DNA of 34,423 nt from an uncultured Anaerolinea sp. (lineage in GTDB: Bacteria > Chloroflexota > Anaerolineae > Anaerolineales > Anaerolineaceae): contig CAZSGL010000002.1 in assembly GCA_964606265.1 (NCBI GenBank), positions 1-34,423 on the forward strand. The letters are read 5' to 3'. Shown here piece by piece: positions 125 through 26,981 of the stretch (the first letter of the stretch is position 1; every line of letters starts with the position of its first letter). The position numbers and the translations under genes are program-made. Below the pieces are notes generated by a model. The model did no database searches, was not told the origin of the DNA, and worked only from the letters and a program-made list of their open reading frames with translations.

Positions 125-516
125 GGGGATGACAGGCTTCGACGGGCGAGGCTGGTCCCGGACGGCAAGCCGAGAGGTACCGAACTCGTAAAATCCGTAC
201 AAAAAACAAGTGCCAAAAACACTTCTTACGTAGCTCTTCCACTCGCTGCATAGCGTGTGATCGAGCTCCCTGACGCCCTAAGAAGCGTCACGTCTTCCTG
301 CTCCGCTCTTCAACCGGTAGCAGAGCGGACGCCACAAAGTTGAAGTGCCGTACATCCTGCCGCGAGGTGTATGAAAGAGGGCTTTCGGGTCCAAGCGACT
401 GGCTGCCTTTTGCTTTTGTTCATTTTACGAAAGGCGGCGAAACAGAAAATGAGCTAAGCTTGTAGAGGTTCGTGGGTCTATTCGTTCGGACGCGGGTTCA
501 ATTCCCGCCATCTCCA
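125..516 (+). ncRNA. ssrA: tmRNA (transfer-messenger RNA, SsrA)
   Basis: The 5' end is GGGGATGACAGGCTTCGACGGG. The 3' end is GGACGCGGGTTCAATTCCCGCCATCTCCA (T-arm plus acceptor strand). The acceptor helix pairs 125-131 with 509-515 and includes a G3:U70 alanine identity pair. The internal tag frame GCC AAA AAC ACT TCT TAC GTA GCT CTT CCA CTC GCT GCA TAG (212-253) reads AKNTSYVALPLAA*. The terminal CCA is not encoded (A516 is followed by CTG). Confidence 0.93.
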
Positions 517-520
517 CTGT

Positions 521-550
521 AAAAACACACTTTGAGTGTGTTTTTATTTT
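521..550. terminator. Bidirectional rho-independent terminator between ssrA (+) and the rlmI-like gene (-)
   Basis: An 11-bp perfect stem AAAAACACACT (521-531) / AGTGTGTTTTT (535-545) with loop TTG, flanked by an A-run and a T-run. It overlaps the stop codon of the minus-strand ORF ending at 544. Confidence 0.7.
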
Positions 551-1740
551 ATACAGACCAGACCCTTCAAATACATGCTTTCCGGGAAACTCATTAATAC
601 CGGATGATCGCCAGCTTGTGATAGCACATCAATCATTTGAATATCAACCCCGGCATCAAGCGCAGCCCCGGAAACGATTTTTTGAAACAGGTCACGTGAA
701 ACTCCACCTGAACAGGAAAAAGTAAAAAGAACTCCACCAGGTCTGAGGAGTTTGAACGCAAGCAAATTTATATCCTTATACCCACGCGCTGCTTTTTCTG
801 CCTTAGAGATAGTCGGCGCAAATTTTGGGGGATCCAAAATGATCACATCAAAGGACTCGGCTTTATCCCGCATGAGTCTGAGTTCCTTGAAGACATCACC
901 GCAAATTGAGGAGCTTTTTCCGCCAATAAAACCATTCTTATTGATATTGATATCCATCTGGTCAATCGCTGGTTGGGAAGAATCAATTGAAGTGACTTTT
1001 TTCGCACCGCCTTTTAATGCATTAAGCGAAAATCCTCCTGTATAGGAAAAGCAGTTCAACACCTCCCTATCCCGGCAGTATTGGCTTAGTTTATGCCTGT
1101 TTTCCCTCTGATCAAGATAGAAACCTGTCTTTTGACCATTTTCAATATCCAAAAAATAATTGATTCCATATTCCTGGATCCAATTCGGTTTTGGCAGTTC
1201 GTCGCCGTGGACTAGACCCGTTCGAGGTGTTAAGCCTTCAAGCAATCTCACATCAACATCAGAACGTTCGTAGATCCGGTTTCCATGGAAAAATGTCTTA
1301 AGAATTTCGCATATTAGTTCTTTGCGCTGTTCAATCCCCACGGAGAGGATCTGGATGACCAGGGTGTCTTTATATTGATCAACTATCAACCCCGGAATGC
1401 CGTCGGATTCACCAAAGACCAGGCGGTAAGAATCCGCATCATCGGATATTATCAATTTTTTCCTTTTTTCAATAGAGGAATGAATTTTGTTAATCAAGTA
1501 TTGTTCATCAATTTTTTCCTCCGCATTCCAGGACCACATACGTGCCCTTATTTGGCTAACTCCTGAATATGCAGCAGTCCCAAGCGCTTCCCCGGTACTT
1601 GACCTTACCAGTATCGTGTCGCCGTCTGATGGGTTACCCTTGATCTCATCAATCGCAGATGCAAATATCCAGGGATGCTTTAATCGCACAGATCTATCCC
1701 TGCCTACACGCAGAATACAACTGGCTAATCTCTCAGTCAC
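544..1740 (-). CDS. rlmI: Class I SAM-dependent rRNA (cytosine-C5) methyltransferase with N-terminal PUA-like domain (RlmI/COG1092 family)
   Basis: 398-aa ORF. Family-typical motifs are present: LDQRENR, VLNCFSYTGGFSL (SAM motif I region) and VIILDPPKFA (DPPxF catalytic motif), with an N-terminal RLKHPWIF PUA-type start. It overlaps the ligA stop by 8 nt, which suggests an operon. Confidence 0.82.
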   Translation of the reverse strand: MTERLASCILRVGRDRSVRLKHPWIFASAIDEIKGNPSDGDTILVRSSTGEALGTAAYSGVSQIRARMWSWNAEEKIDEQYLINKIHSSIEKRKKLIISDDADSYRLVFGESDGIPGLIVDQYKDTLVIQILSVGIEQRKELICEILKTFFHGNRIYERSDVDVRLLEGLTPRTGLVHGDELPKPNWIQEYGINYFLDIENGQKTGFYLDQRENRHKLSQYCRDREVLNCFSYTGGFSLNALKGGAKKVTSIDSSQPAIDQMDININKNGFIGGKSSSICGDVFKELRLMRDKAESFDVIILDPPKFAPTISKAEKAARGYKDINLLAFKLLRPGGVLFTFSCSGGVSRDLFQKIVSGAALDAGVDIQMIDVLSQAGDHPVLMSFPESMYLKGLVCIK

Positions 1741-3757
1741 CCTGGTTCCTCAGTTTCTCCAAAAATGCGCGTTCGTCTAACAAGGAAATTCCCAACAACC
1801 GGGCTTTTTCAAGTTTTGACCCTGCGTTTTCACCTATTACCAAATAATTCGTATTCTTGCTGACAGTATCTGTCACTTTACCGCCAGCATTCTCAATAAG
1901 CTCTTTGGCTTGCTCCCTGGATAAGGTTGGCAATGTTCCGGTTATTACGAAAATTACTCCATTCAAAGGTTTGTTACTAAGATCTATTGTTTCAGTTTTG
2001 TAAGTTGGCCAAACGTCATACATCTTTAATTTAGTGATCAGTCGAGCATTTGGCCCCTGTGAAAACCAGTCGATGATTGCCTGCGCAGTATTAGGTCCCA
2101 CGCCGTCAATCGAAACAAGCTCATCAAAATTTGTTTCTTTTAACCGATCGAGGCTGGTAAATGCCTTTGCAAGTGCAAGTGCTGATACTTCACCAATGCC
2201 ATGAATTCCCAAACCGGTTATTAACTTGGGTAGCGATTGACTTTTGGAAGTGTTAATGGAATTGATAATATTTTCAGCTTTTTTTTGCCCAAATCCTTCC
2301 ATTCCGATTAAATCTGAGGTTTTTAGAATGAAAAGGTCAGCTATGTCCTTAATTTTGCCTTCGTTAATGAGTATTTCAACCATTTTTTCACCCAAACCCA
2401 CAATATCCATAGCCCCTCGCGAAACAAAATGTTCGATATTTCGCACGAGTTGTGCTGGGCAGGTGGTATTAACGCAGTACCAGGCTACTTCATCCGGCAG
2501 GTGTTCAACATCCTGCCCGCAGGAGGGGCATGCAGATGGCGGAGAATAGGGTTGTAAGTCATTACTCCGCGCGCTTATCATGGGACCAATCACATACGGG
2601 ATCACATCTCCGGCTCTTTTGATCAAAACGCGATCCCCGACACGTATATCTTTTTCAGCAATATAGTCAAAATTGTGCAGGGTGGCCTGTTTAACGGTCA
2701 CCCCTCCGATTTCGACAGGCTCAAGTACTGCATACGGTGTCAACACACCGGTTCGCCCTACGTTTACTCGAATTTCCTGGAGTGTAGTGGAAACTTCACG
2801 TGCCGGAAATTTTAATGCAATGGCTCCCCTGGGGTCCTTACCCACAAAACCCAGGTCATCGGCTAACTGCAAATCATTAATTTTTACAACCACTCCATCC
2901 ACTTCATATTGGATGGTATCTCGAATGTCCTTCCATGAATCAATTGAAGTAATCACTTCGGTAAAGCTGTTTTTCAAAACAGCCAATTCCGAGGTTGGGA
3001 ATCCCAGTTCAGCCAGATACTGCAAAAGGCCCCATTGTGTTCTGGGTGGTTCGTCTGAACATTCAATAATCGCATATGTCAACAAAGTTAGAGGTCTGTT
3101 CCTCGTAATGTTTGGATCAAGCTGGCGCAACGACCCTGATGCCGTGTTTCTGGGATTTTGGTAAGTTTTTTCACCATTTTCCTGTAAAATCTCATTCAAC
3201 CGGACAAAATCATCTTTTTTAATAAACACTTCACCGCGTACGATGAGAGTTTCGGGGGGTTTAATTGGCTTGTTGAGAACCGGGATTCGCAGCGGGACAG
3301 ATTTTATCGTTCGAATATTTTCAGTAACATCCTCACCCTGGAGTCCGTCACCTCTGGTAGCCCCTTGAGCCAAAACACCATTTTCGTATCTTAATACCAC
3401 GGTCAAACCATCAATCTTTGGTTCCAGAACGAATCCGGTTGACGTGACTCGACTATCCAACTTTCCAATGCGTTGATACCAATTTTCCAAATCCTTTGTA
3501 TCGAACGCATTCCCTAAAGAAAGTATTGGTGCAGTGTGTTCAACCTTTCTGAACCTGTCCAACGGCTTGCCAAATCCGCGTTGTGTTGGTGAGCTGGAAA
3601 TAATAGCCTCCGGGTGGATCTCTTCCAGCTCCCGCAACCTTCTAAGCTTTATATCGTATTCATAATCGCTGATGGTTGGTTCGTCCAACACATGGTAGCG
3701 ATAATTGTGCTCGCTCAACTCTTTTTGAAGATTTTTAATCTCCTGAAATTCATCCAT
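1733..3757 (-). CDS. ligA: NAD+-dependent DNA ligase
   Basis: 674 aa. It has the adenylation motif EPKIDGL (KxDG), an OB fold, a Cys4 zinc finger (CPSCGQ...YCVNTTCPAQ), HhH repeats (GIHGIGEV, IDGVGPNTA) and a C-terminal BRCT (VITGTLPTLSREQAKELIENAGGKV). Confidence 0.97.
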   Translation of the reverse strand: MDEFQEIKNLQKELSEHNYRYHVLDEPTISDYEYDIKLRRLRELEEIHPEAIISSSPTQRGFGKPLDRFRKVEHTAPILSLGNAFDTKDLENWYQRIGKLDSRVTSTGFVLEPKIDGLTVVLRYENGVLAQGATRGDGLQGEDVTENIRTIKSVPLRIPVLNKPIKPPETLIVRGEVFIKKDDFVRLNEILQENGEKTYQNPRNTASGSLRQLDPNITRNRPLTLLTYAIIECSDEPPRTQWGLLQYLAELGFPTSELAVLKNSFTEVITSIDSWKDIRDTIQYEVDGVVVKINDLQLADDLGFVGKDPRGAIALKFPAREVSTTLQEIRVNVGRTGVLTPYAVLEPVEIGGVTVKQATLHNFDYIAEKDIRVGDRVLIKRAGDVIPYVIGPMISARSNDLQPYSPPSACPSCGQDVEHLPDEVAWYCVNTTCPAQLVRNIEHFVSRGAMDIVGLGEKMVEILINEGKIKDIADLFILKTSDLIGMEGFGQKKAENIINSINTSKSQSLPKLITGLGIHGIGEVSALALAKAFTSLDRLKETNFDELVSIDGVGPNTAQAIIDWFSQGPNARLITKLKMYDVWPTYKTETIDLSNKPLNGVIFVITGTLPTLSREQAKELIENAGGKVTDTVSKNTNYLVIGENAGSKLEKARLLGISLLDERAFLEKLRNQGD

Positions 3758-3858: not shown

Positions 3859-4212
3859 ATGAAAATTATCGCATTCATCGGATCTGGGATACTCGTGCTC
3901 TTTGGCGCATTAATGGTTTTAGGATCAGTTGACCGCACCGGAAATATTATCTGGTTACCAATTGGCCTCGTCCTGATTGGCATCGGACTGGCGATCATCT
4001 TTATTGCTGCCAAGAAAAAACCTATTGCTGACGTTACCAATGTCACATACAATGTAGACCTACCTGGCAACATGAAAGTTGACGAAATCAAGTGCAAATC
4101 CTGCGGAGGGACATTAAGCGCCAAGGATATTACACTGGTTAATGGTGCTCCGATGGTCACATGTCCATTTTGCCATACTGTTTACCAATTCACTGAAGAA
4201 CCAAAGTGGTGA
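3859..4212 (+). CDS. Small two-TM membrane protein with a cytoplasmic C-terminal zinc ribbon (CxxC...CxxC)
   Basis: 117 aa. There are two hydrophobic helices, then AAKKKP (positive-inside), then CKSCGG-x20-CPFCH. SD GAGGTG lies 6 nt upstream of ATG 3859. It is the first gene of the plus-strand cassette. The antisense ORF 3843-4160 is judged a shadow. Confidence 0.72.
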   Translation: MKIIAFIGSGILVLFGALMVLGSVDRTGNIIWLPIGLVLIGIGLAIIFIAAKKKPIADVTNVTYNVDLPGNMKVDEIKCKSCGGTLSAKDITLVNGAPMVTCPFCHTVYQFTEEPKW

Positions 4213-4241: not shown

Positions 4242-5951
4242 ATGAGAGTCTACCGCTATATTTGCCTGTTCCTGATTTTTGTTTTACTGGCAGGGAGCAC
4301 TAGCCCCGTTTCTGCCCAGGATTATCGTTTTCAGGTACCTGAACAGGCAGTTGTGGTCACAATCAACTCTGATGGCTCCATCGCAATTGATTACACCATG
4401 AAATTTCTCAATGACTCTGGAGCACACGCCATTGATATCGTAGATATTGGTCTTCCTAATTATGATTACGACCTCAAAACAATTACTGCTGATATTAATG
4501 GCACACCCATCACAAGGATCACAGATTCAGATATTGTCTCTCCCGGAATTTCACTTTATTTACAAAAGAATGAAATCCCGGCAGGTGGATCAGGAATTGT
4601 TCACGCCAATATTGCTGCCGTAAAAAATGTGATCTATCCTGCTACGCAAAATGAATCTGAGGAATACGCCAGCCTAGTTTTTTCTCCCAATTGGTATGAC
4701 AGCCAATATACTCACGGCAATACCACCTACCAGATGACCTTTTTGCTTCCTTCAGGCATGACAGATGCAGAATCACGCTATTTCGTTCCGGAGGGATGGC
4801 CAGGCGCACAAGAACCTGAAAGCAGGATCATGTCGGATGGTCGAATTTTCTATACCTGGGTATCCGATCAGGCGAATAATTATACCCAATACACATTTGG
4901 CGCGAGTTTTCCTTCCCGCTACCTGGCTGAAGGGGTTATTGTTACCGAACCATATGTCCCACCAACCAAACCAACACCATCCTTCGATCTCAGTTCAATT
5001 TGTCCATTCATCTTCTGCCTTGGGTTTGCCGGATTTTTTGTTCTCATCATTTATTCTGCCACATTGGGCGCAAAGAAAAGGAAACTTCAGTACCTACCTC
5101 CCAAGATTTCCATTGAAGGTCACGGGATAAAACGAGGCCTCACCGCCGTAGAAGTAGCGGTTCTCATGGAACAACCCATGGATAAGATATTTACCATGAT
5201 CCTTTTTGGTGTTCTTAAAAAAGAAGCAGCTCAGGTGGTGACGAAAGACCCGTTGGATATCAATCCCACCAGTCCACTCCCTGAAGGGTTGAATGGGTAC
5301 GAGACTGATTTCCTGGCTGGTTTTGCTGAAAAAAATACGGCTGCCAGGCGTAAGCTGCTTCAAGTGGTTATGGTGAATCTGATCCGCGTTGTTGGCGAAA
5401 AAATGAAGGGATTCAGTAAAAAGGAAACCCTCACCTATTATGAATCGATCATGAAGAATGCCTGGACGCAGGTTGAGACCGCCGGAACCCCTGAAGTCAA
5501 AGCACAAGCCTATGAAGAGGTCATGGATTGGACAATGCTGGATAAAAAATACCAGGAACGTACACAGGATACCTTTAGTGGTCCGGTGTTTATTCCAACC
5601 CCGTCCTGGTGGTGGCGCTACGACCCGACCAGTGCGCGTCCAGCCTCAACCAGAGTAACGACAGCCATGCCGCCTGCCATTGGTGGAAAAAGCGTTTCCT
5701 TGCCCTCAATGCCCACCATGCCCGGCTCTACATTTGCTGCGTCGGTGGTTAATAGCGTTTCCACTTTCTCCTCAAGTGTTTTGGGTGGATTAACCGGGTT
5801 TACAAGTGGAGTTACCAACGTCACCAATCCGCCTCCGCCTCCTTCAACATATAGGAGTTCTGGCGGTGGTTCCAGCGGTGGAGGACGATCGTGTGCATGT
5901 GCCTGTGCCTGTGCTGGCTGTGCTTGTGCTTGTGCTGGTGGCGGACGATAA
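4242..5951 (+). CDS. Signal-peptide/one-TM membrane protein, DUF2207-like, with a Gly-rich and alternating Cys-Ala C-terminal tail
   Basis: The preferred start is ATG 4242 (SD GGAGGG at 4231-4236) rather than the track's GTG 4206. The signal peptide is MRVYRYICLFLIFVLLAGSTSPVSA|QDY. It is followed by a beta-rich ectodomain and then a TM helix (ICPFIFCLGFAGFFVLIIYSATLGA) followed by KKRK. The cytoplasmic segment PPKISIEGHGIKRGLTAVEVAVLMEQ... resembles the DUF2207 pattern by eye. The P/S/T/G-rich tail ends PPPPPSTYRSSGGGSSGGGRSCACACACAGCACACAGGGR. Confidence 0.85.
   Translation: MRVYRYICLFLIFVLLAGSTSPVSAQDYRFQVPEQAVVVTINSDGSIAIDYTMKFLNDSGAHAIDIVDIGLPNYDYDLKTITADINGTPITRITDSDIVSPGISLYLQKNEIPAGGSGIVHANIAAVKNVIYPATQNESEEYASLVFSPNWYDSQYTHGNTTYQMTFLLPSGMTDAESRYFVPEGWPGAQEPESRIMSDGRIFYTWVSDQANNYTQYTFGASFPSRYLAEGVIVTEPYVPPTKPTPSFDLSSICPFIFCLGFAGFFVLIIYSATLGAKKRKLQYLPPKISIEGHGIKRGLTAVEVAVLMEQPMDKIFTMILFGVLKKEAAQVVTKDPLDINPTSPLPEGLNGYETDFLAGFAEKNTAARRKLLQVVMVNLIRVVGEKMKGFSKKETLTYYESIMKNAWTQVETAGTPEVKAQAYEEVMDWTMLDKKYQERTQDTFSGPVFIPTPSWWWRYDPTSARPASTRVTTAMPPAIGGKSVSLPSMPTMPGSTFAASVVNSVSTFSSSVLGGLTGFTSGVTNVTNPPPPPSTYRSSGGGSSGGGRSCACACACAGCACACAGGGR
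5892..5936 (+). repeat. Imperfect in-frame hexanucleotide array (TGY-GCN)x7 encoding CACACACAGCACACA
   Basis: The codons are TGT GCA TGT GCC TGT GCC TGT GCT GGC TGT GCT TGT GCT TGT GCT. I translated them codon by codon back from the TAA stop at 5949-5951. Confidence 0.92.
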
Positions 5952-5961
5952 ATTCTGTAAA

Positions 5962-7290
5962 ATGAGCCTTCAATCCAGTTTGCGCACGTTTTTTAAGACT
6001 CCACCTGCAGTGGGTTTACCTTCTACAGGTGTATACCATTTTGTTCATGAATCTGGTGAGGATAAATCGCGCATTCACCTGCGGATTGATGGTGATGGTT
6101 CAGGTGTGATGATCATTAACGCCAACCAGATCTACCATCTGAACCCTACAGCAGCCACCATGTCCTATTTCCACTTGAACCATCTGCCAGTGGAAACCTC
6201 TATTAAGGCATTGAAAACTGCTTTCGATGTGAGTGACGTGGATGCATTAGCAGACTACCAATCTGCCGGCAAGATGATCGATCAACTGATTGATACAAAT
6301 GCCTGCCCGATTTGCGACCTGGACCTCGAAATCAATGCTCCATTTTCTTCTACTCCTACGGCACCATACCGTATGGATCTGGCGATTACTTACCGCTGCA
6401 ACAATGCGTGTGCCCATTGTTATAACGGACGGCCTCGTAACTATCCAGAACTTACTACCAATTCATGGTTCGGGATCCTGGATAAATTATGGGAGATAGG
6501 TATTCCTCACGTGGTATTTACTGGTGGGGAGCCAACATCTCGGGATGATCTTGCATTATTGATTAGACACGCTGAGGAAAAGGGTCAAATAACCGGACTT
6601 AATACAAATGGACGAAAATTAAGCGATGAGACTTATGTGAAATCACTGGTTGATTCGGGATTGGACCATTTACAAATTACTTTTGAATCCGATGTCCCGT
6701 CCATCCATGATGAAATGGTTTGCCACCCGGGTGCGTGGTCACAAACGGTGGCAGGGTTGAAAAATGCGATAAAAAACCATAAATATGTGATGACCAATAC
6801 CACAATGCTTTCGACCAACAAACATACGATACCTGACACATTACGTTTTCTTGGTGACCTGGGGGTTCGAACAGTAGGTTTGAATGCGTTGATCTATTCA
6901 GGTAAAGGCAAAACTGTGGGAACTGGATTGTCAGAAAACGAATTACAAGAACTTTTATCAACAGCCAGGGAAATTATAGAATCGTATGATCAAAGGTTGA
7001 TCTGGTATACCCCGACACAATATTGTAATTTCGATCCAGTAATTAATGACCTGGGGGTTAAGGGTTGTACCGCGGCACTTTACAATATGTGTATCGAACC
7101 TAACGGTGATGTCATTCCGTGTCAATCCTATTACTCTTCGGTCGGCAATTTTCTTTCATCTGATTGGGAAAAGATTTGGAATCACTCTCTTTGTACTTCA
7201 CTTCGAGAACGCAGATATTTGGCTGAAAAATGCAAAGGATGCCTTTTAGTATCAGAGTGCGGTGGTGGTTGCCCTTTGATAGTTGAGTAA
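5962..7290 (+). CDS. Radical SAM/SPASM-domain maturase with an N-terminal PqqD-like RiPP-recognition element (RRE)
   Basis: The start ATG 5962 is supported by collinear alignment with the downstream paralogue (MSLQSSLRTFFK vs MKARIRTFIDN). PqqD-like segment: residues 37-110 (VMIINANQIYHLNPTAATMSYFHL...ADYQSAGKMIDQLI). rSAM cluster motif: YRCNNACAHCYN (CX3CX2C, 6397-6420). GGE motif: VVFTGGEPT. C-terminal SPASM cysteines: CNF...GC...C...C...CKGCLLVSECGGGC (CX2CX5CX3C). Confidence 0.9.
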   Translation: MSLQSSLRTFFKTPPAVGLPSTGVYHFVHESGEDKSRIHLRIDGDGSGVMIINANQIYHLNPTAATMSYFHLNHLPVETSIKALKTAFDVSDVDALADYQSAGKMIDQLIDTNACPICDLDLEINAPFSSTPTAPYRMDLAITYRCNNACAHCYNGRPRNYPELTTNSWFGILDKLWEIGIPHVVFTGGEPTSRDDLALLIRHAEEKGQITGLNTNGRKLSDETYVKSLVDSGLDHLQITFESDVPSIHDEMVCHPGAWSQTVAGLKNAIKNHKYVMTNTTMLSTNKHTIPDTLRFLGDLGVRTVGLNALIYSGKGKTVGTGLSENELQELLSTAREIIESYDQRLIWYTPTQYCNFDPVINDLGVKGCTAALYNMCIEPNGDVIPCQSYYSSVGNFLSSDWEKIWNHSLCTSLRERRYLAEKCKGCLLVSECGGGCPLIVE

Positions 7291-7316: not shown

Positions 7317-8495
7317 ATGAAAGCACGAATTCGAACTTTTATTGACAATATTCTCTTTACTCCTAAACCGCTAACTGAGAACAGCTATCAAGGGTTTTTT
7401 CCCCTTCCCGATGGAACAAATTGCAGGTTGCATCTTCGGGTAAACAACGAGGGCGAAGGGATTTTAATCTTAAACGCCAGTACGATTCTCCATTTGAATC
7501 CGAGTGCGACTGAATTTGCCTATCATCTCATCCAGCGCACAGATGAAGATATAATCGTAAAAGAACTGGTTAAGAGATATCAAATATCCGCCTCAGCTGT
7601 AAAATCTGATTATGAGGTTTTTATTGGCAGGTTGGAGTCATTATTAACATCGCCAGACCTTGATCCAGAAAATTTTCTGGATATTGAGCGCATTGATCTC
7701 CACAAAGAACGCTTCTCATCTCCTTTACGCTTAGATTGCGCACTGACATATCAAACCAGTGATGATTCCTCTCCTGCGCTTACACCCGTTGAAAGAGTAA
7801 AAAGGACGCTGGACACCCAGGAATGGAAAAATATTCTACAAAAAGCATGGGATAAAGGCATCCCGCATGTGGTTTTCACCGGCGGCGAGCCAACATTACG
7901 TCCTGATCTTGTGGAACTGATAACATTTTCTGAAGAGATTGGTTTGGTAACGGGATTGCTCACGGATGGCGCACGCCTAACCGATACTGATTACCTCCAT
8001 AGTCTCTTAGCATCAGGTCTCGATCATATAATGATTGTGCTTTACCCAGGAAACCCCGTCTCCTGGGAAGCAATAAAAGATGTGATTAACGAGGACATAT
8101 CGCTCACCGTTCATATTACTGTATCCAGTAACCATACAGTGAATTACCCGAACCTGTTCGAAAAATTGCAGGAATTACAAATAAAAAAGATTTCACTGAG
8201 TGCTGATTCGCTTGATTCCAGTAAGATATTGCCTGAATTGTCACGTAAAGCGCTGGATTATGGTTTATCAATAGTATGGGACCTGCCGGTTCCCTATTCC
8301 GATATCAATCCTATCGCCATGGAGCTTGTTCAAGTTGAAAATTCTCTCAAGGGGGCTGCCCGTTCATGGCTTTACGTGGAACCGGATGGTGATGTTCTGC
8401 CTGGTCAAGGGATTATCTCAGTTCTGGGCAACATTTTGACAGATCCCTGGGAAACTATTTGGTCAGCCGCCAAGTTATGGCAGCATGACTCCTGA
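7317..8495 (+). CDS. Pseudo-radical-SAM paralogue: it keeps the RRE and GGE motifs but lacks the CX3CX2C and all SPASM cysteines
   Basis: 392 aa. SD GGAGGG lies upstream of ATG 7317. It aligns with the upstream rSAM along its whole length (RRE at residues 37-110; GIPHVVFTGGEPT is identical). The cluster-binding site reads LDCALTYQTSDDSS and the C-terminal region has no Cys. There are only 2 Cys in the whole protein. Confidence 0.85.
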   Translation: MKARIRTFIDNILFTPKPLTENSYQGFFPLPDGTNCRLHLRVNNEGEGILILNASTILHLNPSATEFAYHLIQRTDEDIIVKELVKRYQISASAVKSDYEVFIGRLESLLTSPDLDPENFLDIERIDLHKERFSSPLRLDCALTYQTSDDSSPALTPVERVKRTLDTQEWKNILQKAWDKGIPHVVFTGGEPTLRPDLVELITFSEEIGLVTGLLTDGARLTDTDYLHSLLASGLDHIMIVLYPGNPVSWEAIKDVINEDISLTVHITVSSNHTVNYPNLFEKLQELQIKKISLSADSLDSSKILPELSRKALDYGLSIVWDLPVPYSDINPIAMELVQVENSLKGAARSWLYVEPDGDVLPGQGIISVLGNILTDPWETIWSAAKLWQHDS

Positions 8496-9246
8496 ACAAT
8501 CCAATCCTAATTGGAATCAAAGGTTTTCTATTCAAGCAGAATGGACAAAACCACTTCGTCAATTTCTAATTGAACAAACAGGCATGAGCAGTTCTTCCAG
8601 CGTTCTGGAGGTCGGAAGTGGAACAGGTGTAATCCTTCGAGATACGATTGACATGGCTGGCAATCAACCCATTGGAATCGATTTTGATCTCGGGCGGTTG
8701 TCTGAAAATAAGGCAATAAACCCAGATCAAGTTGTTGCCAGCGCTAATGTCTATTTTCTTCCTTTTCCTGTAAATACATTTGATTTCGTCATTTCTCATT
8801 ACTTTTACCTTTGGTTGAAAGATCCTATTCAAGCATTAACCGAAGTAAAAAGGGTTTTGAAACCAGGCGGGCGTGCCATCGCATTTGCTGAGCCTGATTA
8901 CGCTGCAAGGATCGAATACCCTGAATATTTTCAAACATTAGCGGATGCTCAAACCAAATCTCTATTTGTTCAGGGTATCAACCCAAAAACTGGACGTTTA
9001 CTCCCTTCTTTTTTTTCTGGTAGCGGTTTTACCGATATCCAATTTGGAATCTCAGGTTTTCAAATTCCTGTTCAAGAGTTGAGCAAGGATTGGGAGTCAG
9101 AATGGAAAATGCTCGAACACGATTTATCTGGAAATGGTTCGGGCATACAATTAGCTCAATACAAATTAAATGATAAAAAATCCCGTCTTTCTGGCTCAAG
9201 AGTATCCTGGATCCCTACTTTTTATACAATTGGCAAGAAGAATTAA
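8485..9246 (+). CDS. Class I SAM-dependent methyltransferase
   Basis: 253 aa. Motif I is VLEVGSGTGVILRD and the post-I/II region is VLKPGGRAIAFAEPD. The start overlaps the previous gene by 11 nt (ATGACTCCTGA), which suggests translational coupling. Confidence 0.88.
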   Translation: MTPEQSNPNWNQRFSIQAEWTKPLRQFLIEQTGMSSSSSVLEVGSGTGVILRDTIDMAGNQPIGIDFDLGRLSENKAINPDQVVASANVYFLPFPVNTFDFVISHYFYLWLKDPIQALTEVKRVLKPGGRAIAFAEPDYAARIEYPEYFQTLADAQTKSLFVQGINPKTGRLLPSFFSGSGFTDIQFGISGFQIPVQELSKDWESEWKMLEHDLSGNGSGIQLAQYKLNDKKSRLSGSRVSWIPTFYTIGKKN

Positions 9247-19257: not shown

Positions 19258-22200
19258 ATGTCTGAACAATTTGCCAGTACACCCATCCAGGAGAAGCAAC
19301 CGGTCTTTCGCAAAAACCTTGTTCAACGGGTTTTGATTGGTCTACTTTTAATTGCTCTTATACCAATTCTAATTATAAGTACAGTGACATTTATTCGTAC
19401 TCGTAATACAGTCCAATCTCAAGCCCTGGGTCAGTTAGCGTCTTTAGCTGATTCCTATTCTTTTCAAATTGAGCAATTTGTTGCAACCCGGCGCCAGGCG
19501 CTTGATCAGATCAACCAATCTGCCGGTTTTGACTCTAATGTTGCGGTACTATTCCAGGGAAGAACCGCCTCAACCTACTTCTTTGCACTTTCTTCGCTCA
19601 CAAACTACATTAATCAATATATTGAAACACCAACAGAAAAAATATTCGACCAAGTCTCCATTGTAGATATCGATGGCACTGTTCTAGTTTCATCAAACCC
19701 AGACCTCACAGGAACCATTCTTTCAGATAGTTACATCATCAGGTCAATGTATCAGCTTAATAAATCAGTATTAGCTTATGACCCGGGTGGTTTATTCCCT
19801 GGACAGGTGGTTCTAATTACTAGCAAGATATACATAAATCCAGAAGGTGCACCTGGACTTACTTTGGTAGGTTTTTCTGCATCGCCAGTCCCTCTTTCCC
19901 AATTAAATACCTCCCAATCATTCTTTGAATCCAGTGCGGGTTTTATCCTTGCCACCGATAATAACTTGATCACAACTGACCAAAAAACAATTTCTCCAAT
20001 TATCGTTCCACAAACCAGTGATGAGTTAGGCGCAATCCAGTCTCGCTTAACCTCTGGTGGATTGGGAACCCAATATCAGTATATCGACAAAAGCGGAGCT
20101 CAGGTTTTTGGTTACTATAAGAATTTACCCGCAGTATCTTCTAATTTAATAATTGAAGTTCCCCAATCCGTTGTTCTTGGTCAGCTTCAAGATCTCCTTC
20201 CATTTACCCTCATCCTATTAACTGCACTGATGTTGATCTCTGCAATAATTGTGTACATTTCGTCAAGGAGAATTGTAAAACCATTAGTTGACCTGGCAAA
20301 CGATGCCCAAACATTTTCGGCTGGAGACTGGTCTTATCGAGCTAAAGTTGAAAGAGACGATGAAATTGGATTGTTAGCTTACTCCTTCAATAATATGGTT
20401 GATCAGTTGACCGGTTATTATTATTCTCTTGAAGAAAAAGTTGAGTCACGAACCCAGCAGCTCCGACTTGCTGCAGAAATTGCTCAAGAAGCCAGTAAGG
20501 GACTCACCCAGGGGGATATACTCCATCAGGTTTCAGTTGCCATTTCTGAAAAACTGGAAATCCCATACCATGCGGTTTATTTGATTGACAATGTTTCGAG
20601 AACTGCTTCTCTACTAGAACAGAACTCAACCCTCTCCGATACCTTACCAGAGAAAAATTCGATAATCCCAATTAATAATGAATCCATGGTTGGTTGGTCA
20701 GCTGTCAATAAGCAACCGCGAACATCAGGAAACATCCGGGCAGAGAATGATTTCACCAATACTCAGGGAATTTTAGATTCTACATCAAGTCAAATTACTC
20801 TACCTGTTATTGTTGACGAAGAGGTTGTAGCGGTATTGGATTTCCAGAGTGACAGACCTAATGTGTTTGACAATGAATCGCTGACTGTTTTTTCCACCTT
20901 GTCTGACCAATTGGCCACCGGTCTTCGCAATATCCAGGTGGTTGAAACTGCTACTGTAGGTCTGCGTGAAACTAACGCCTTGTATAGCACCAGCCGACAA
21001 GTGACTGTCGCCCATTCTATCGAGGAGGTGACGGAACACCTGGCCTTCTTATTCAACCAGACTCAATATGTTAGTTTCTTTTTCAGTGTTCTTGGTGATC
21101 AGATTCACCTCATTAATGTTACTGATCCCAAAGGGACTAGGTTGGACCAATCATTGAAGGGTTTTAATATTCCCTTGGGAAAAGGTCTCACAAGGCTAAC
21201 AAATAATCCTATGCTAATTTTGGATGACCTGAAGACAGAATCTGACTTCAGCAACCTGAGTGTCTATTTTGAACGTAGAGGCTGCACTTCTATTGCGCTT
21301 CTACCCATTAGCATTACAAATGATCTTGGCTACCTCCTGGTAATGGGTTCTCGTGAACATGAACCTTTTTCAATTCTGCAGATTCAACCGTACATCAATT
21401 TAACAGAAGTAGTTGGGGCAACACTGGAACGTGTTACTCTCCTTTCAACATTAAATCAACGCGTAAAAGAGCTTGATACTTTGTCTTCAATCAGTCAATC
21501 TGCAACAACTGCCACTAATATTGAAGACCTTTTTGAAAGGGTCCATCAAGAGCTGATTCAAACTTTGGGCTCCAACCTTGGTTTCTCGGTCATACTAAAT
21601 AACATTGATCAAGCATCTCTTTCCATCGCATACTACAAAGATGACGAAAAACTGATCATTCCTGCCTATCCTTACACTGATGATCTTTTTTCTTTACTGG
21701 TCACAAAAGGCGAACCTATATTGCACAGAGATGCTTCTGTCCTTGGTTTGAGAACCGTTGACTTTGATCAGTTCACACTTTCTGCTAAATCCTGGTTAGG
21801 CATTCCTTTGATCCTGGGTGACCGCGTCCTGGGTGGTTTGGTTCTCTTTGATTCAAAAACATCCAATCGGTTTTCCACCGCAGATAGTGAGCTCATAAGC
21901 ACATTAGCTCCTCAAATTGCAGCCTCAATACAGAACACCGAATTAATCGCTTCCCAGGAAAGAGCCCTCAATGCATTTGAAGAAGAGAGATTCTTGTTGA
22001 ACTCACTTCTTAAGAATATTCCAGACGAAATTATCTTCAAAAACTCAAAAGGTGAATTTATCCGAATGTCTGATTCGGCATCCCTGTCCCTTGGAGCTGA
22101 GAATCCGGATTCTCTGGTTGGGAAACTGGATTCTGTTGACGAAATAACAGAGACTGAAACAGGTTTTGAATTGGAAGTTGATTCTGATCTTTCTGTTATT

Positions 22201-23574
22201 TCTCGTGCGACTCCACTCCTTGGAAAAATCGAACAGGTCGACAGCATTGGTGGAAATAAAGGCTGGGCTCTTACCAGTAAGATTCCATTATTGGATGAAT
22301 CTGGCAGTGTGTCAGCACTACTGAAAATTTCCCGTGATGTAACTGAGCTGGTTAATACTCAAAATATTGCGCGCCGCCGTGCAGATCAGTTATTGACCAC
22401 CAGCGAAATTGCCCGGGAAGCTACTACCGGTAACCTGGACATTGATGAAACTTTAAAACGTCTTGTGGACCTTGTTAAGAATCGTTTTGGTTTTTACCAC
22501 TCCTCGATCTTCCTGCTCGATGTGCTTGGTCAATTTGCTGTTCTCAGGGAATCTACTGGAGAAGCAGGGGCACAATTGAAAGAAAAAGGGCACAAACTCG
22601 CTGTGGGCTCTACATCAATTATCGGACAAACCACAGCAAGAGGCGAACCTGTTGTTGTTGGCGATGTGACAAAAGAATTGAATTATTATCCCAACCCATT
22701 GCTGCCAAATACTCGTTCAGAAATGGGTATCCCTTTGAAAATTGGCGATAAAGTATATGGAGCTCTTGATGTTCAGTCGGAAGAAGTGGATGCATTTACA
22801 TCGGAGGACATTAATATTTTGCGCGTTCTGGCTGACCAGTTAACAGTAACTATTCAAAATGCAAATCTCTATACCAAAACACAACAGACTCTAGAAAGAC
22901 ACAGATTATTGCAGCAATTAACGTCTTCTGCGGGTCAAAATATTACCATTGAAGATGCAACCAGAAATGCAGTTCAAGCGCTTCAACGAATTTTCCCACT
23001 TGAAAAAGTTACATATATGATATCAAGCTCTCCTGTCCATCTCAAAGTGAATTCCTACGCTGGTTATTCACCTGATTCTCTGTTATTCGATGAAATTACT
23101 AAAGGGCAAGGCATAATCGGCAAAGCTGGATCAGAAATTAAAGCACAACTTTCCATAGATATACCATCTTCTGATGAGGGTAACGCCTTATGCAAAGGCA
23201 CAAGATCGGTCCTTGCAGTGCCTGTTGCTTACGGTAACCGGTTAATGGGTGTTTTTGTGACAGAAAGTACAGAACCTGGGAAGTTTGATGAAAACGATCA
23301 GGAAATTGTGGCAACATTATCCAGCAATATGGCATCCTTAATTGCCAATATTGAACTTGTTGAGCAAATCAGGCTGCAGGTAGATCGGCAACGACAACTT
23401 TACGACATCACCAGTAAGATTCGCCGCTCTACCGACGTGGAGACAATCATGAAAACCTCGCTAGCTGAAATTTGTACAGCCCTCAATATTCGTAAAGCTT
23501 CAATTGAGCTGCTTCAGGACCAATCTGAGATTGAACCTGTTAGCGATTTAATGAATTTACAGAAGGGTAAATAA
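19258..23574 (+). CDS. Membrane sensor protein: TM, Cache-like ectodomain, TM, HAMP, multiple GAF, PAS-like, GAF x2, then a C-terminal GAF stub; no recognisable output domain
   Basis: 1438 aa. SD AAGGAG lies upstream of ATG 19258. The TM helices are LIGLLLIALIPILIISTVTFI and FTLILLTALMLISAIIVYI. The HAMP is RRIVKPLVDLA...DEIGLLAYSFNNMVDQL. There are several GAF-like modules, including the conserved subtype at about 22371-22875 (FGFYHSSIFLLD...NPLLPNTRSEMGIPLKIGDKVYGALDVQS). No H-box, GGDEF, EAL or HTH motif is visible by eye. Confidence 0.9.
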   Translation: MSEQFASTPIQEKQPVFRKNLVQRVLIGLLLIALIPILIISTVTFIRTRNTVQSQALGQLASLADSYSFQIEQFVATRRQALDQINQSAGFDSNVAVLFQGRTASTYFFALSSLTNYINQYIETPTEKIFDQVSIVDIDGTVLVSSNPDLTGTILSDSYIIRSMYQLNKSVLAYDPGGLFPGQVVLITSKIYINPEGAPGLTLVGFSASPVPLSQLNTSQSFFESSAGFILATDNNLITTDQKTISPIIVPQTSDELGAIQSRLTSGGLGTQYQYIDKSGAQVFGYYKNLPAVSSNLIIEVPQSVVLGQLQDLLPFTLILLTALMLISAIIVYISSRRIVKPLVDLANDAQTFSAGDWSYRAKVERDDEIGLLAYSFNNMVDQLTGYYYSLEEKVESRTQQLRLAAEIAQEASKGLTQGDILHQVSVAISEKLEIPYHAVYLIDNVSRTASLLEQNSTLSDTLPEKNSIIPINNESMVGWSAVNKQPRTSGNIRAENDFTNTQGILDSTSSQITLPVIVDEEVVAVLDFQSDRPNVFDNESLTVFSTLSDQLATGLRNIQVVETATVGLRETNALYSTSRQVTVAHSIEEVTEHLAFLFNQTQYVSFFFSVLGDQIHLINVTDPKGTRLDQSLKGFNIPLGKGLTRLTNNPMLILDDLKTESDFSNLSVYFERRGCTSIALLPISITNDLGYLLVMGSREHEPFSILQIQPYINLTEVVGATLERVTLLSTLNQRVKELDTLSSISQSATTATNIEDLFERVHQELIQTLGSNLGFSVILNNIDQASLSIAYYKDDEKLIIPAYPYTDDLFSLLVTKGEPILHRDASVLGLRTVDFDQFTLSAKSWLGIPLILGDRVLGGLVLFDSKTSNRFSTADSELISTLAPQIAASIQNTELIASQERALNAFEEERFLLNSLLKNIPDEIIFKNSKGEFIRMSDSASLSLGAENPDSLVGKLDSVDEITETETGFELEVDSDLSVISRATPLLGKIEQVDSIGGNKGWALTSKIPLLDESGSVSALLKISRDVTELVNTQNIARRRADQLLTTSEIAREATTGNLDIDETLKRLVDLVKNRFGFYHSSIFLLDVLGQFAVLRESTGEAGAQLKEKGHKLAVGSTSIIGQTTARGEPVVVGDVTKELNYYPNPLLPNTRSEMGIPLKIGDKVYGALDVQSEEVDAFTSEDINILRVLADQLTVTIQNANLYTKTQQTLERHRLLQQLTSSAGQNITIEDATRNAVQALQRIFPLEKVTYMISSSPVHLKVNSYAGYSPDSLLFDEITKGQGIIGKAGSEIKAQLSIDIPSSDEGNALCKGTRSVLAVPVAYGNRLMGVFVTESTEPGKFDENDQEIVATLSSNMASLIANIELVEQIRLQVDRQRQLYDITSKIRRSTDVETIMKTSLAEICTALNIRKASIELLQDQSEIEPVSDLMNLQKGK

Positions 23575-23575
23575 T

Positions 23576-25237
23576 ATGAACTATTTCCGTTCATTACTCC
23601 CCTCATACTCTCCACCTAATATTGACCCAAAGGATGAATTACGTGTCTGGCAGGAACGGTCACTGCAATACCTGCTGATCGGATTCGCCATAATCAGTGT
23701 AAGTGTCGCATTATTAATGATTCAATCCTCGAGTTTCACCGGAAATTGGACTTTATTCTTTAGTTTTGCTTTTCTTGCTCTAGCTTCTTTGGCACTTTTT
23801 CTCCTCAGGAATGTCTCTTATTGGATCCGGTCAATTTCCGCTCTGGTTGCTTTTTACATTGTAGCTACGGTTGTTTTTATCCGTAGCGGTTGGGGTGGTG
23901 TTGCTCTCCTCATGCTCATTTCTTTTTCCTTTCTCGCAACTATTTTTCTTTACAATAAACCATCAAGGATAGGCTTAGGTTTGAGTATTGGTACGCTCTT
24001 ATTCTGGGCAGTCCTCCGCAGCACTGCACTAGTTCCGGGAATTGTTGAATCATCCAACATACTCACCCTGATCATCGACGTTGTATTGGTCTTATTTATT
24101 GGAGTCGTGGGTAATTTTGCCATTTCAACATTGAAAAAGAAATTCCTTGATGAGCATAATAAGTTAACGAGTTCTGAATTAGCTAGAGAAGAACTGCATA
24201 GACAATTAGAGCTTCAGAAAACAGACCTTGAAAAGAGAGTTTTCCAATTACGTACCGCTTCAGAGATCACCCAAACAGCCTCAACGATTTTCGAAGCCCA
24301 GGCTTTGTTACAGAAAGTGGCAGAACTGGTTCGGGAGCGATTCGACCTCTATTACATCGGGATTTTTCTGCTTGATGAAGCAAAAGAGTATGCCGTTTTG
24401 CGCTATGGCACAGGTGATGCTGGCCGAAGAATGATGGCAGCAAAGCACAAGCTGGCAGTTGGTGGCTATTCAATGATTGGATGGGCTACCCAAACCAGGA
24501 AATCAAGAATTGCACTGGATGTCGGAGAAGAAGCAGTGCATTTTGATAATCCGTTACTTCCAGAAACACGGTCTGAACTAGCATTGCCCATCATCGGTGC
24601 AAATGTTGTTTACGGTGCTATGACGGTCCAATCGACATTGGTTAACGCATTTGATGAAAATGACGTATTAATTCTTCAAAGTGTTGCCGATAGTCTTGCC
24701 GTCGCCCTCGAAAACGCTTCCTCATTCCAAAAATCACAGAAAGCCATGGATGATATCCGTGTTTTGAATCGTGCCTATATTAAACAAGCTTGGTGGGATA
24801 CGCTCGATTTGAACCGCGAAATGAAATTTGACTTTGAAAACCCAGAATCCATTGAAATGCCGGAGAATCCAAACACCATTGAGGTCCCACTGGTTTTACG
24901 TGATGAGGTGATTGGTAAAATCAACCTTGAATTTGATGGTTCTGAAGTTTCAAAGGAGATGCAAGAATTTTTGGATACGATATCCTCCCAAACAACAGTT
25001 GCGCTTGAAAACGCCAGGTTGATTGAGGAAACGCAGCTCGCAGCTTTACAGGAGCAACAATTAAATGCCCTTACAGCCCAGTTTTCGAGAGCAGTTACTA
25101 TTGAAGAAATTCTAAAGACAGCGGTTATGGAATTTGGCAAACTTCCTTCTGTAAGTGAGGCGTCAATCGCACTTATCCCACCTGAAGAGAATGAAAGCCG
25201 CGAACTAAGACCTTTCACCAGTAAGGAGGTGAAATGA
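23576..25237 (+). CDS. Polytopic membrane protein (about 6 TM), coiled coil, GAF, half-GAF module, then a GAF stub; no output domain
   Basis: 553 aa. It starts 1 nt after the previous stop. The GAF is FDLYYIGIFLLDE...NPLLPETRSELALPI. The protein then continues YIKQAWWDTL...VPLVLRDEVIGKINLEF...ALENARLIEE and ends with ...ILKTAVMEFGKLPSVSEASIALI. Confidence 0.88.
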   Translation: MNYFRSLLPSYSPPNIDPKDELRVWQERSLQYLLIGFAIISVSVALLMIQSSSFTGNWTLFFSFAFLALASLALFLLRNVSYWIRSISALVAFYIVATVVFIRSGWGGVALLMLISFSFLATIFLYNKPSRIGLGLSIGTLLFWAVLRSTALVPGIVESSNILTLIIDVVLVLFIGVVGNFAISTLKKKFLDEHNKLTSSELAREELHRQLELQKTDLEKRVFQLRTASEITQTASTIFEAQALLQKVAELVRERFDLYYIGIFLLDEAKEYAVLRYGTGDAGRRMMAAKHKLAVGGYSMIGWATQTRKSRIALDVGEEAVHFDNPLLPETRSELALPIIGANVVYGAMTVQSTLVNAFDENDVLILQSVADSLAVALENASSFQKSQKAMDDIRVLNRAYIKQAWWDTLDLNREMKFDFENPESIEMPENPNTIEVPLVLRDEVIGKINLEFDGSEVSKEMQEFLDTISSQTTVALENARLIEETQLAALQEQQLNALTAQFSRAVTIEEILKTAVMEFGKLPSVSEASIALIPPEENESRELRPFTSKEVK

Positions 25238-26967: not shown

Positions 26968-26981
26968 TCAGTGGAGGAAAG

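Follow-up and report, generated by a model that had tools for sequence, protein, structure and literature searches.

A conserved cysteine-alanine tail of an Anaerolineae membrane protein as a candidate substrate of the radical-SAM/SPASM enzyme encoded next to it

What is the role of a C-terminal tail in which cysteine and alanine strictly alternate, carried by a membrane protein whose gene lies directly upstream of that of a radical S-adenosylmethionine (rSAM) enzyme? The question is raised by a locus of an uncultured Anaerolinea sp. (contig CAZSGL010000002.1, positions 1 to 34,423; this whole stretch of 34,423 nucleotides is referred to here as the window). The tail protein is encoded on the forward strand by an open reading frame (ORF) that starts at ATG 4242, or at an in-frame GTG at 4206, and ends at 5951. 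Translation from the ATG confirmed the length of 569 amino acids (aa) and the ending that had been read in the original prediction, PPPPPSTYRSSGGGSSGGGR-S-CACACACAGCACACA-GGGR-stop, which in a longer view is ...NPPPPPSTYRSSGGGSSGGGR-S-CACACACAGCACACA-GGGR and, split at the central pair, ...S-CACACACAG-CACACA-GGGR-stop. Based on its conservation and on its genetic company, we regard the tail, with somewhat better than even confidence, as the substrate ("core peptide") on which the downstream rSAM/SPASM enzyme acts.

The DNA behind the block had been described as an imperfect 6-nt repeat, in agreement with Tandem Repeats Finder (array at 5892-5940 with 8.7 copies and 86% matches, plus a 21-nt period in two copies), and it was proposed that in-frame slippage would change the number of Cys-Ala units. 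The degenerate DNA pattern of the block occurs once in the window and in none of 100 dinucleotide-preserving shuffles of it, with up to two mismatches allowed. A protein search with the tail protein recovered 3878 homologues at E<=1e-3, and tails were compared in the best 120 of them (49-92% identity), most of which come from metagenome-assembled genomes (MAGs) of Anaerolineae. These proteins are called "hypothetical protein" wherever they bear any name, the precomputed Pfam entry being "-" for all 120, and the identical 19-residue ending CACACACAGCACACAGGGR is present in 120/120; the tryptic peptide of the tail, SCACACACAGCACACAGGGR, is short and invariant. In an alignment of 40 sequences the last 19 columns are 100% identical, compared with a mean of 65% for the whole protein and 24% in the disordered stretch that precedes the pre-tail segment described below. 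The back-translated block was also used as the query in a scan of one genome per GTDB species, which gave at least 119 loci, each examined over 8 kb; the 123 genomic copies considered here are 119 scan loci, the window and two previously fetched loci. In all of the scan loci the motif stands at the very C-terminus and, wherever the upstream DNA suffices, inside a homologue of the window protein (26-97% identity). The DNA of the block is distinct in 123/123 copies, with each synonymous Cys, Ala and Gly codon in use at each position, and GGGR-stop follows it in every one although the scan pattern had left GGGR-stop free. One peptide encoded by 123 different DNA sequences evidences conservation of the peptide and not of the DNA repeat; the Cys-Ala tail is a real, selected motif.

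The alternative that the block is a functionless slippage product of a TGY-GCN hexamer array, with variable copy number, draws on the tandem repeat seen in the window and on a unit number that varies between deep subfamilies. It is contradicted by a peptide that stays identical down to 49% identity, by the saturation of synonymous sites, the DNA repeat itself not being conserved, by the occurrence of the motif in several bacterial phyla and in Asgard archaea, and by the lack of any copy-number change among relatives of at least 90% identity within the best 120 homologues. The expected slippage was thus not seen, the unit number being fixed over the 120 homologues and the 123 DNA-distinct copies; slippage or a lineage-specific low-complexity accident is ruled out by the invariant peptide, and we give this explanation practically no credence.

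Since the genome scan had selected for the motif, a search blind to the tail was made with residues 1-519 against 1.84 billion cluster representatives (E<=1e-3), and the tails of the best 150 clusters were read. The family comprises at least 779 clusters at 50% identity. A (Cys-X)n tail was present in 101 of the best 150 of these clusters, and 98 of the 101 end in GGGR; the other 49 are almost all fragments of less than 500 aa, with P0268 (549 aa and without a tail) as a possible true exception. The window form, type 4+3, accounts for 52 clusters, followed by types 5+3 (9 clusters), 3+3 (8), 3+4 (7), five uninterrupted units (6) and 2+4 (5); the remaining clusters are singleton types. Across the family the tail holds 3 to 10 Cys, the shortest being that of P0156 with three. 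Unit number differs between deep subfamilies only. In variants of canonical length substitutions are limited to the central pair (AG to DS, AS or VS), so that the block can be written as (CA)3-C-x-x-C-(AC)2-A. Judged from these sequences, the tail appears as the hallmark of the whole family, with CACACAGGGR-COOH as its most constant part. Some genomes encode tandem tail-protein paralogues: in locus L124 two such genes, at 273..1949 with (CA)6 and at 1946..3571 with (CA)5, are followed by a single rSAM gene; L076 also has a second tail gene, and two motif hits were found in L066.

The tail is also tied to the rSAM gene. Among motif-selected loci with at least 700 nt of downstream DNA, 99/109 have a co-oriented rSAM-like ORF that begins no more than 450 nt downstream, and in L076, one of the 10 exceptions, merely the second tail paralogue stands between the tail gene and the rSAM gene. 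Where at least 3.5 kb of downstream DNA was available, two rSAM-like genes were present in 50/64 loci and a methyltransferase gene in 45/64. The linkage was then read in reverse, from 80 metagenome loci picked by rSAM homology alone, of which 66 had at least 260 nt upstream: the tail is encoded directly upstream in 61/66 and 0.7-1.6 kb away in four more, 65/66 in total, a result of limited depth because the rSAM-selected loci are fairly close orthologues (54-64% identity). In loci with variant tails the gene order itself has changed, being rSAM, Cys-poor paralogue and tail protein in L123 and L126, two tandem tail paralogues and rSAM with the methyltransferase on the opposite strand in L124, and small protein, 10-Cys tail protein and rSAM in L125, with start and stop codons overlapping in these loci (L123-L126). 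The tail-rSAM linkage thus survives gene rearrangement and tail variation. With the block in all close orthologues and an rSAM neighbour as the rule, neither of the observations that the original prediction had named as speaking against it, absence from close orthologues or a wide spread among homologues that never neighbour rSAM genes, was made. The adjacency part of its rSAM-substrate idea therefore stands in both directions; the substrate role itself is one that we infer.

In the window the two genes belong to a cassette of five, all on the forward strand and separated by overlaps or gaps of at most 27 nt (Table 1). The rSAM enzyme matches Pfam Radical_SAM (1.7e-23) and SPASM (1e-08; 35.8 bits vs a cut-off of 21.5), and in the alignment of homologues its cluster cysteines C146, C150 and C153 and its SPASM cysteines C355, C369, C387, C424, C427, C433 and C437 are invariant. 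Its N-terminus can be aligned to the part of the next-encoded paralogue that holds the PqqD domain and falls, taken alone, below the PqqD hidden Markov model. The nearest solved structures are PqqE, BlsE, SkfB, SuiB and CteB, and the best NCBIfam hits (PqqE, NirJ2, GeoRSP, AhbD, MftC, StsB, SkfB and ACGX) all score far below the curated cut-offs. As the nearest solved relatives PqqE, SkfB, SuiB and CteB modify peptides and the family scores are sub-cut-off, the enzyme is best placed, from its sequence, in the peptide-modifying SPASM/Twitch clade and outside every named family. Its true start is most likely ATG 5962 (MSLQSS...), on which homologues agree; the ORF list extends the gene to GTG 5806 (5806..7290) because the Cys-Ala repeat reads VPVPVLAVLVLVLV out of frame, as the original prediction had noticed. 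The same over-extension (MRLRRLRLRLRGR...) was observed in several related loci and could mislead gene callers.

The gene that follows encodes the paralogue, which has lost the CxxxCxxC motif and all SPASM cysteines, retaining 2 Cys in total together with the GGEP SAM-binding stretch; because of these losses it is presumed to be an inactive partner (pseudo-enzyme). The equivalent paralogues of L123 (2668..3951) and L126 (4649..6004) keep part of the SPASM Cys set. The first gene of the cassette, which overlaps the GTG 4206 reading of the tail ORF, encodes a small zinc-ribbon membrane protein, and such an ORF was found upstream of the tail gene in 89/91 loci with sufficient DNA. Its C-terminus is exactly EEPKW in 74/89, and DKVKW or DNVNW in Asgard loci; the pattern ...Y-x-[ILV]-x-E-E-P-K-W-stop is near-invariant (e.g., L009, L012, L040, L051, L058, and L074). 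Neither this small protein nor the tail protein is covered by a model of Pfam, NCBIfam (release 20) or PADLOC.

Table 1. Features of the five-gene cassette and of the tail protein in the window, with the basis of each assignment
Feature	Position	Strand	Basis or remark
Small membrane protein, 117 aa; two transmembrane (TM) helices and CxxC...CxxC zinc ribbon; C-terminus ...EEPKW	3859..4212	+	Weak zinc-ribbon hits
Cys-Ala-tail membrane protein, 569 aa (alternative start GTG 4206)	4242..5951	+	No Pfam/NCBIfam family
N-terminal signal peptide or membrane anchor, residues 1-26	4242..4319	+	Hydropathy; AF2 (AlphaFold2) helix 2-18
Extracytoplasmic beta-sandwich, residues 27-235	4320..4946	+	AF2 pLDDT (predicted local distance difference test) >90, confident 30-224
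Single TM helix, about residues 250-283, then KKRK	4989..5090	+	Hydropathy; AF2 helix 253-283
Cytosolic helical domain, residues 284-465	5091..5636	+	AF2 helices 302-460; 70% column identity
Conserved pre-tail segment, residues 494-532	5721..5837	+	Two predicted amphipathic helices, AF2 495-513 and 517-528
Ser/Gly/Arg-rich linker, residues 533-550	5838..5891	+	Length and sequence variable; AF2 disordered
Cys-Ala block CACACAC-AG-CACACA, residues 551-565; 7 Cys in 15 residues	5892..5936	+	Invariant in 120/120 closest homologues
GGGR (5937..5948) and stop (5949..5951), invariant extreme C-terminus	5937..5951	+	123/123 copies
Radical-SAM/SPASM enzyme, 442 aa; PqqD-like N-terminus, CNNACAHC (CxxxCxxC), full SPASM Cys set CKGCLLVSECGGGCP	5962..7290	+	Pfam
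rSAM paralogue, 392 aa, PqqD domain	7317..8495	+	31% identity over 380 aa; Pfam PqqD 28.9 bits vs cut-off 23.4
Class I SAM-dependent methyltransferase, 253 aa; 11-nt overlap with preceding gene	8485..9246	+	Pfam Methyltransf_11 5e-16

The layout of the tail protein is consistent with a substrate role. Radical-SAM enzymes work in the cytoplasm. Hydropathy gives only two hydrophobic segments in the protein, residues 1-26, where ...SPVSA-QD resembles a cleavage site, and approximately 250-278; the KKRK that follows the TM helix places the C-terminal half and the tail, by the positive-inside rule, probably in the cytoplasm. Neither sequence-profile search for solved relatives nor comparison with Pfam at E<=10 (the whole protein, residues 1-236 and residues 270-486) and NCBIfam gave a match, and the DUF2207-type assignment suggested in the original prediction was not recovered; in the absence of a hit to the DUF2207 model (PF09972) even at that threshold, membership as a recognised member is ruled out. 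In general arrangement the protein may nonetheless resemble DUF2207 proteins, with a beta-rich extracytoplasmic domain at the N-terminus, a membrane span and a Gly-rich tail at the C-terminus. The AF2 model of the full-length protein has a mean pLDDT of 75. For the ectodomain, Foldseek returned generic beta-sandwiches only, those of ribophorin I/Ost1 and of the M1 aminopeptidase N-terminal domain (E of about 1e-7 to 1e-6). The cytosolic domain opens with a helix-helix-beta-hairpin unit (GIKRGLTAVEAAILMEQPMDKI...); residues 284-530 were modelled with a pTM (predicted template modelling score) of 0.75 and found no match with E<1 in the PDB by Foldseek, and the predicted domain may be a new fold. 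After the helical domain, AF2 gives a disordered stretch, two helices within 495-528 and the disordered tail.

In 112 aligned C-terminal regions a conserved segment is followed by a variable linker and then by the invariant block. The pre-tail consensus, LPGSxFAAS..V..FS..V.G...FT..VT..TNPxP, is kept across bacterial phyla, with F520, T525, T528, N529, and P532 invariant, and reads LPGS...FTSGVTNVTNPPPPPS in the window protein. By analogy, this order resembles the leader-spacer-core arrangement of precursors of RiPPs (peptides that the ribosome makes and that are modified after translation), placed on a large protein, and the pre-tail segment is a candidate recognition (leader-like) element.

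Based on these features, the following sequence of events can be hypothesized. With the protein in the membrane, the beta-sandwich would lie outside and the C-terminal half would reach into the cytoplasm, where the ...FT..VT..TNPxP segment, 20-40 residues before the tail, would be bound in the manner of a RiPP leader by the PqqD-type domain of the rSAM enzyme and/or of its paralogue. The flexible Ser/Gly/Arg linker would allow the tail to reach the active site, and the enzyme would modify the tail cysteines by radical chemistry, a thioether between Cys-S and a neighbouring carbon being the commonest outcome in this clade. The Cys-less, PqqD-bearing paralogue may assist in recognition or act as a scaffold, and a further modification is possibly added by the methyltransferase. 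Such processing would leave an array of covalently modified Cys tethered to the membrane, which may bind metal or be redox-active. Enzymes of the rSAM/SPASM clade are reported to form Cys thioethers in sactipeptides, in ranthipeptides and in the protein subunit QhpC, and also to oxidise Cys to formylglycine in sulfatases (PMC10114670).

Several observations weigh against the tail being the substrate. No rSAM gene was found in the stored flank of L004, L007, L021, L023, L036, L094, L096, L115, and L117; L007, L023, and L036 belong to high-GC unclassified bacteria and L021 to Planctomycetota, these four and L115 encoding a canonical tail protein, and the small protein is missing as well from the stored flanks of L021 and L115. 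The motif-selected genome loci are biased to the canonical tail by construction, and some of the MAG taxon labels may reflect mis-binning. The putative substrate is no short precursor peptide but the terminal part of a membrane protein of 569 aa; neither a leader peptidase nor an exporter is encoded in the cassette or in the conserved flanks, which consist of housekeeping genes that differ between loci. The AF2 model gives the tail no structure (pLDDT of approximately 30). Finally, the EEPKW end of the small protein, a second candidate substrate or partner, could be what the rSAM enzyme truly targets. Lys-Trp cross-linking is a known SPASM chemistry (SuiB).

Comparison with known systems helps to locate the cassette. 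As in the maturases of RiPPs, the enzyme combines a CxxxCxxC core, SPASM auxiliary Cys and a PqqD-like recognition element; a short dedicated precursor was not found, the sole Cys-rich candidate being the C-terminus of the 569-aa protein and the other small ORF encoding 117 aa. For an rSAM enzyme that modifies Cys within a functional protein, the closest precedent is QhpD/QhpC, in which an rSAM/SPASM enzyme introduces several Cys thioethers into a protein subunit and not into an exported peptide (PMC10114670). QhpC, however, is a small soluble subunit whose Cys are linked to Asp/Glu carbons, whereas the target here would be a disordered C-terminal tail whose Cys are separated by Ala and Gly alone and which ends a membrane protein of 569 aa; genes for an amine dehydrogenase do not occur nearby, and NCBIfam gave no QhpD-level match for the rSAM enzyme. 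The sacti- and ranthipeptide systems (AlbA/SboA, SkfB, ThnB, CteB with SCIFF, and PapB) likewise join a SPASM/Twitch rSAM enzyme and a PqqD-type domain with a Cys-rich core located C-terminal to the recognition sequence (PMC10114670). Their precursors, in contrast, have about 40-60 aa, are cleaved and exported, and carry Cys 2-4 residues apart with separate acceptors, whereas the present system shows strict Cys-Ala alternation, an inactive rSAM paralogue and a core-genome site next to ligA, and lacks a short precursor, a peptidase and a transporter.

PqqE/PqqD/PqqA and MftC/MftB/MftA show similarities: among NCBIfam models and PDB entries PqqE matches best in sequence, the cassette too has a PqqD domain and, as in mycofactocin, a conserved extreme C-terminus would be the target. 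They differ in that neither a PqqA- or MftA-like peptide nor PqqB/C or MftD/E genes are present and in that the targets here would be Cys instead of Glu/Tyr or Val/Tyr; membership was rejected on the scores of PqqE (TIGR02109, 118.3 vs a cut-off of 381.35) and MftC (TIGR03962, 75.4 vs 265). In the ACGX system (TIGR04340/TIGR04341) an rSAM/SPASM protein is paired with a short repeat target that contains Ala-Cys-Gly. Its repeat unit differs, its carrier is a small peptide and not a large membrane protein, and the rSAM enzyme of the window scores 56.6 bits against a cut-off of 400 (TIGR04340). Scores far below the curated NCBIfam cut-offs also eliminated the systems for heme d1 or alternative heme (NirJ, AhbC/D), GeoRSP, SynChlorMet and HxsC. 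The target motif of anaerobic sulfatase-maturing enzymes is (C/S)-x-(P/A)-x-R. This system was discarded, as the tail, ...C-A-C-A-G-G-G-R, offers no Cys followed by x-(P/A)-x-R and Pfam detects no sulfatase domain. A known anti-phage defence was likewise rejected: in PADLOC the rSAM core was similar to viperins in a generic way only and the methyltransferase gave a weak hit, the tail protein and the small protein none. Altogether, the cassette appears from its sequences to encode an rSAM/SPASM maturase with a Cys-rich target, unprecedented in its carrier and core sequence and with a pseudo-enzyme added.

The tail might instead be an unmodified metal or Fe-S module, its seven thiolates lying on one face of an extended strand or in a C-x-x-C hairpin; the rSAM pair would then act elsewhere, for example on the EEPKW end or on a small molecule, and the tail protein would be a partner, scaffold or sensor. 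Runs of Cys-X-Cys and a central C-x-x-C are well-established metal ligand patterns, and metallothioneins and C-terminal Cys-X-Cys sites such as that of CopY, which one account gives as CxCxxxxCxC (PMC12648655), share with the tail a dense array of Cys-X-Cys in a short unstructured segment. The restriction of variation to a turn-like central pair (AG, DS, AS, VS), the second invariant C-terminus in the cassette and the loci without an adjacent rSAM agree with this view, as does the range of 3-10 Cys between subfamilies, which a simple chelating array could tolerate. On the other hand, in metallothioneins and CopY-type sites the X residues are variable and no dedicated rSAM is involved, whereas the X of the tail is Ala almost without exception in hundreds of sequences from several phyla, GGGR-COOH is invariant and a genetic tie to an rSAM exists. 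Metal arrays would normally tolerate many residues at such positions, and the near-invariance of Ala, almost that of Cys, seems more in keeping with an enzyme substrate than with a plain thiolate metal site. An unmodified module also leaves unexplained the invariant GGGR-stop and the tight, bidirectional, rearrangement-proof link to a PqqD-bearing, peptide-modifying rSAM enzyme. We consider it unlikely, even if it merits serious attention; a modified tail may itself bind metal, in which case the two readings are compatible.

Going beyond the substrate role, it is possible, and proposed here tentatively, that the rSAM/pseudo-rSAM pair and the methyltransferase turn the tail into a new protein-tethered structure, which a receptor-like carrier would anchor at the cytoplasmic side of the membrane. 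This structure could be a thioether ladder across a C-x-x-C hairpin or a modified poly-thiol metal/redox cofactor, and it would represent a new class of protein-embedded rSAM modification in the core genome of Anaerolineae, with further carriers among several other bacterial phyla and the Asgard archaea. Neither the motif nor the system turned up in full-text searches of the literature ("CACACA" matched PCR primers only), and the (Cys-Ala)n core has no match among known rSAM targets. If the tail is a substrate, RiPP-type machinery would act on a full-length membrane protein throughout a large uncharted family of at least 779 clusters, and both the class of substrate and, probably, the chemistry or a protein-derived metal/redox site would be new. 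A substrate role would moreover offer a first clue to the function of a cassette conserved in the core genome of Anaerolineae, organisms abundant in anaerobic digesters and sediments.

The distribution of the cassette bears on another alternative. According to record titles, most carriers are Chloroflexota/Anaerolineae, among them two in culture, Ornatilinea apprima P3M-1 and Leptolinea sp. HRD-7. Other carriers are assigned to Acidobacteriota/Aminicenantes, Ca. Sabulitectum/Hyd24-12, Planctomycetota, Zixibacteria, Coatesbacteria, and Edwardsbacteria, and further ones comprise a deltaproteobacterial MAG, Clostridia/Syntrophothermus MAGs and two Promethearchaeota MAGs. The tail-protein copies of the Asgard MAGs are only 26-27% identical and lysine-rich, features that fit a genuine archaeal origin. 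One rSAM together with a methyltransferase was found in Fermentibacteria, Zixibacteria, Coatesbacteria, an Acidobacteriota MAG and Promethearchaeota, and a single rSAM only, within the stored flank, in Aminicenantes loci; the distant phyla have the active enzyme only, without the pseudo-enzyme paralogue.

This presence in lineages of anaerobic sediments and digesters and in Asgard archaea would also suit a system in which the target of the rSAM pair and the methyltransferase is a membrane lipid or another small molecule, as tetraether lipids are for Tes and Gms, the tail protein being a co-regulated membrane partner. All non-enzyme proteins of the cassette are membrane proteins, the paralogue weakly matches the N-terminal part of Tes (NCBIfam), and the rSAM enzyme weakly matches the solved GDGT-MAS (PDB). 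The Tes score, however, is 27.9 bits against a cut-off of 450 and concerns the paralogue only, and the N-terminus in the cassette is PqqD-like, a peptide-binding domain, unlike that of Gms, which has an N-terminal six-helix domain and is reported in archaea only (PMC11186832). Nor would action on a lipid account for the fact that conservation of the protein is highest in its tail. As neither scores nor domain architecture fit, a tetraether-lipid rSAM (Tes/Gms) was rejected, and lipid or small-molecule action in general is improbable.

The rest of the window is core chromosome, with ligA, an RlmI-like methyltransferase, a major facilitator superfamily transporter, gltX, rodA, PBP2, mreC, and mreB, together with response regulators, GAF/HAMP/Cache sensors and a ParA-like ATPase. 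In two relatives ligA also flanks the cassette, and the other flank differs. Four large sensor-type proteins with Cache/HAMP/GAF/PAS or MASE11/GAF domains are encoded in a row at 19258..29918 on the forward strand, with no output domain detected in any of them in Pfam at E<=1e-5. This run is preceded by two single-domain response regulators and followed by a ParA/MinD-like ATPase.

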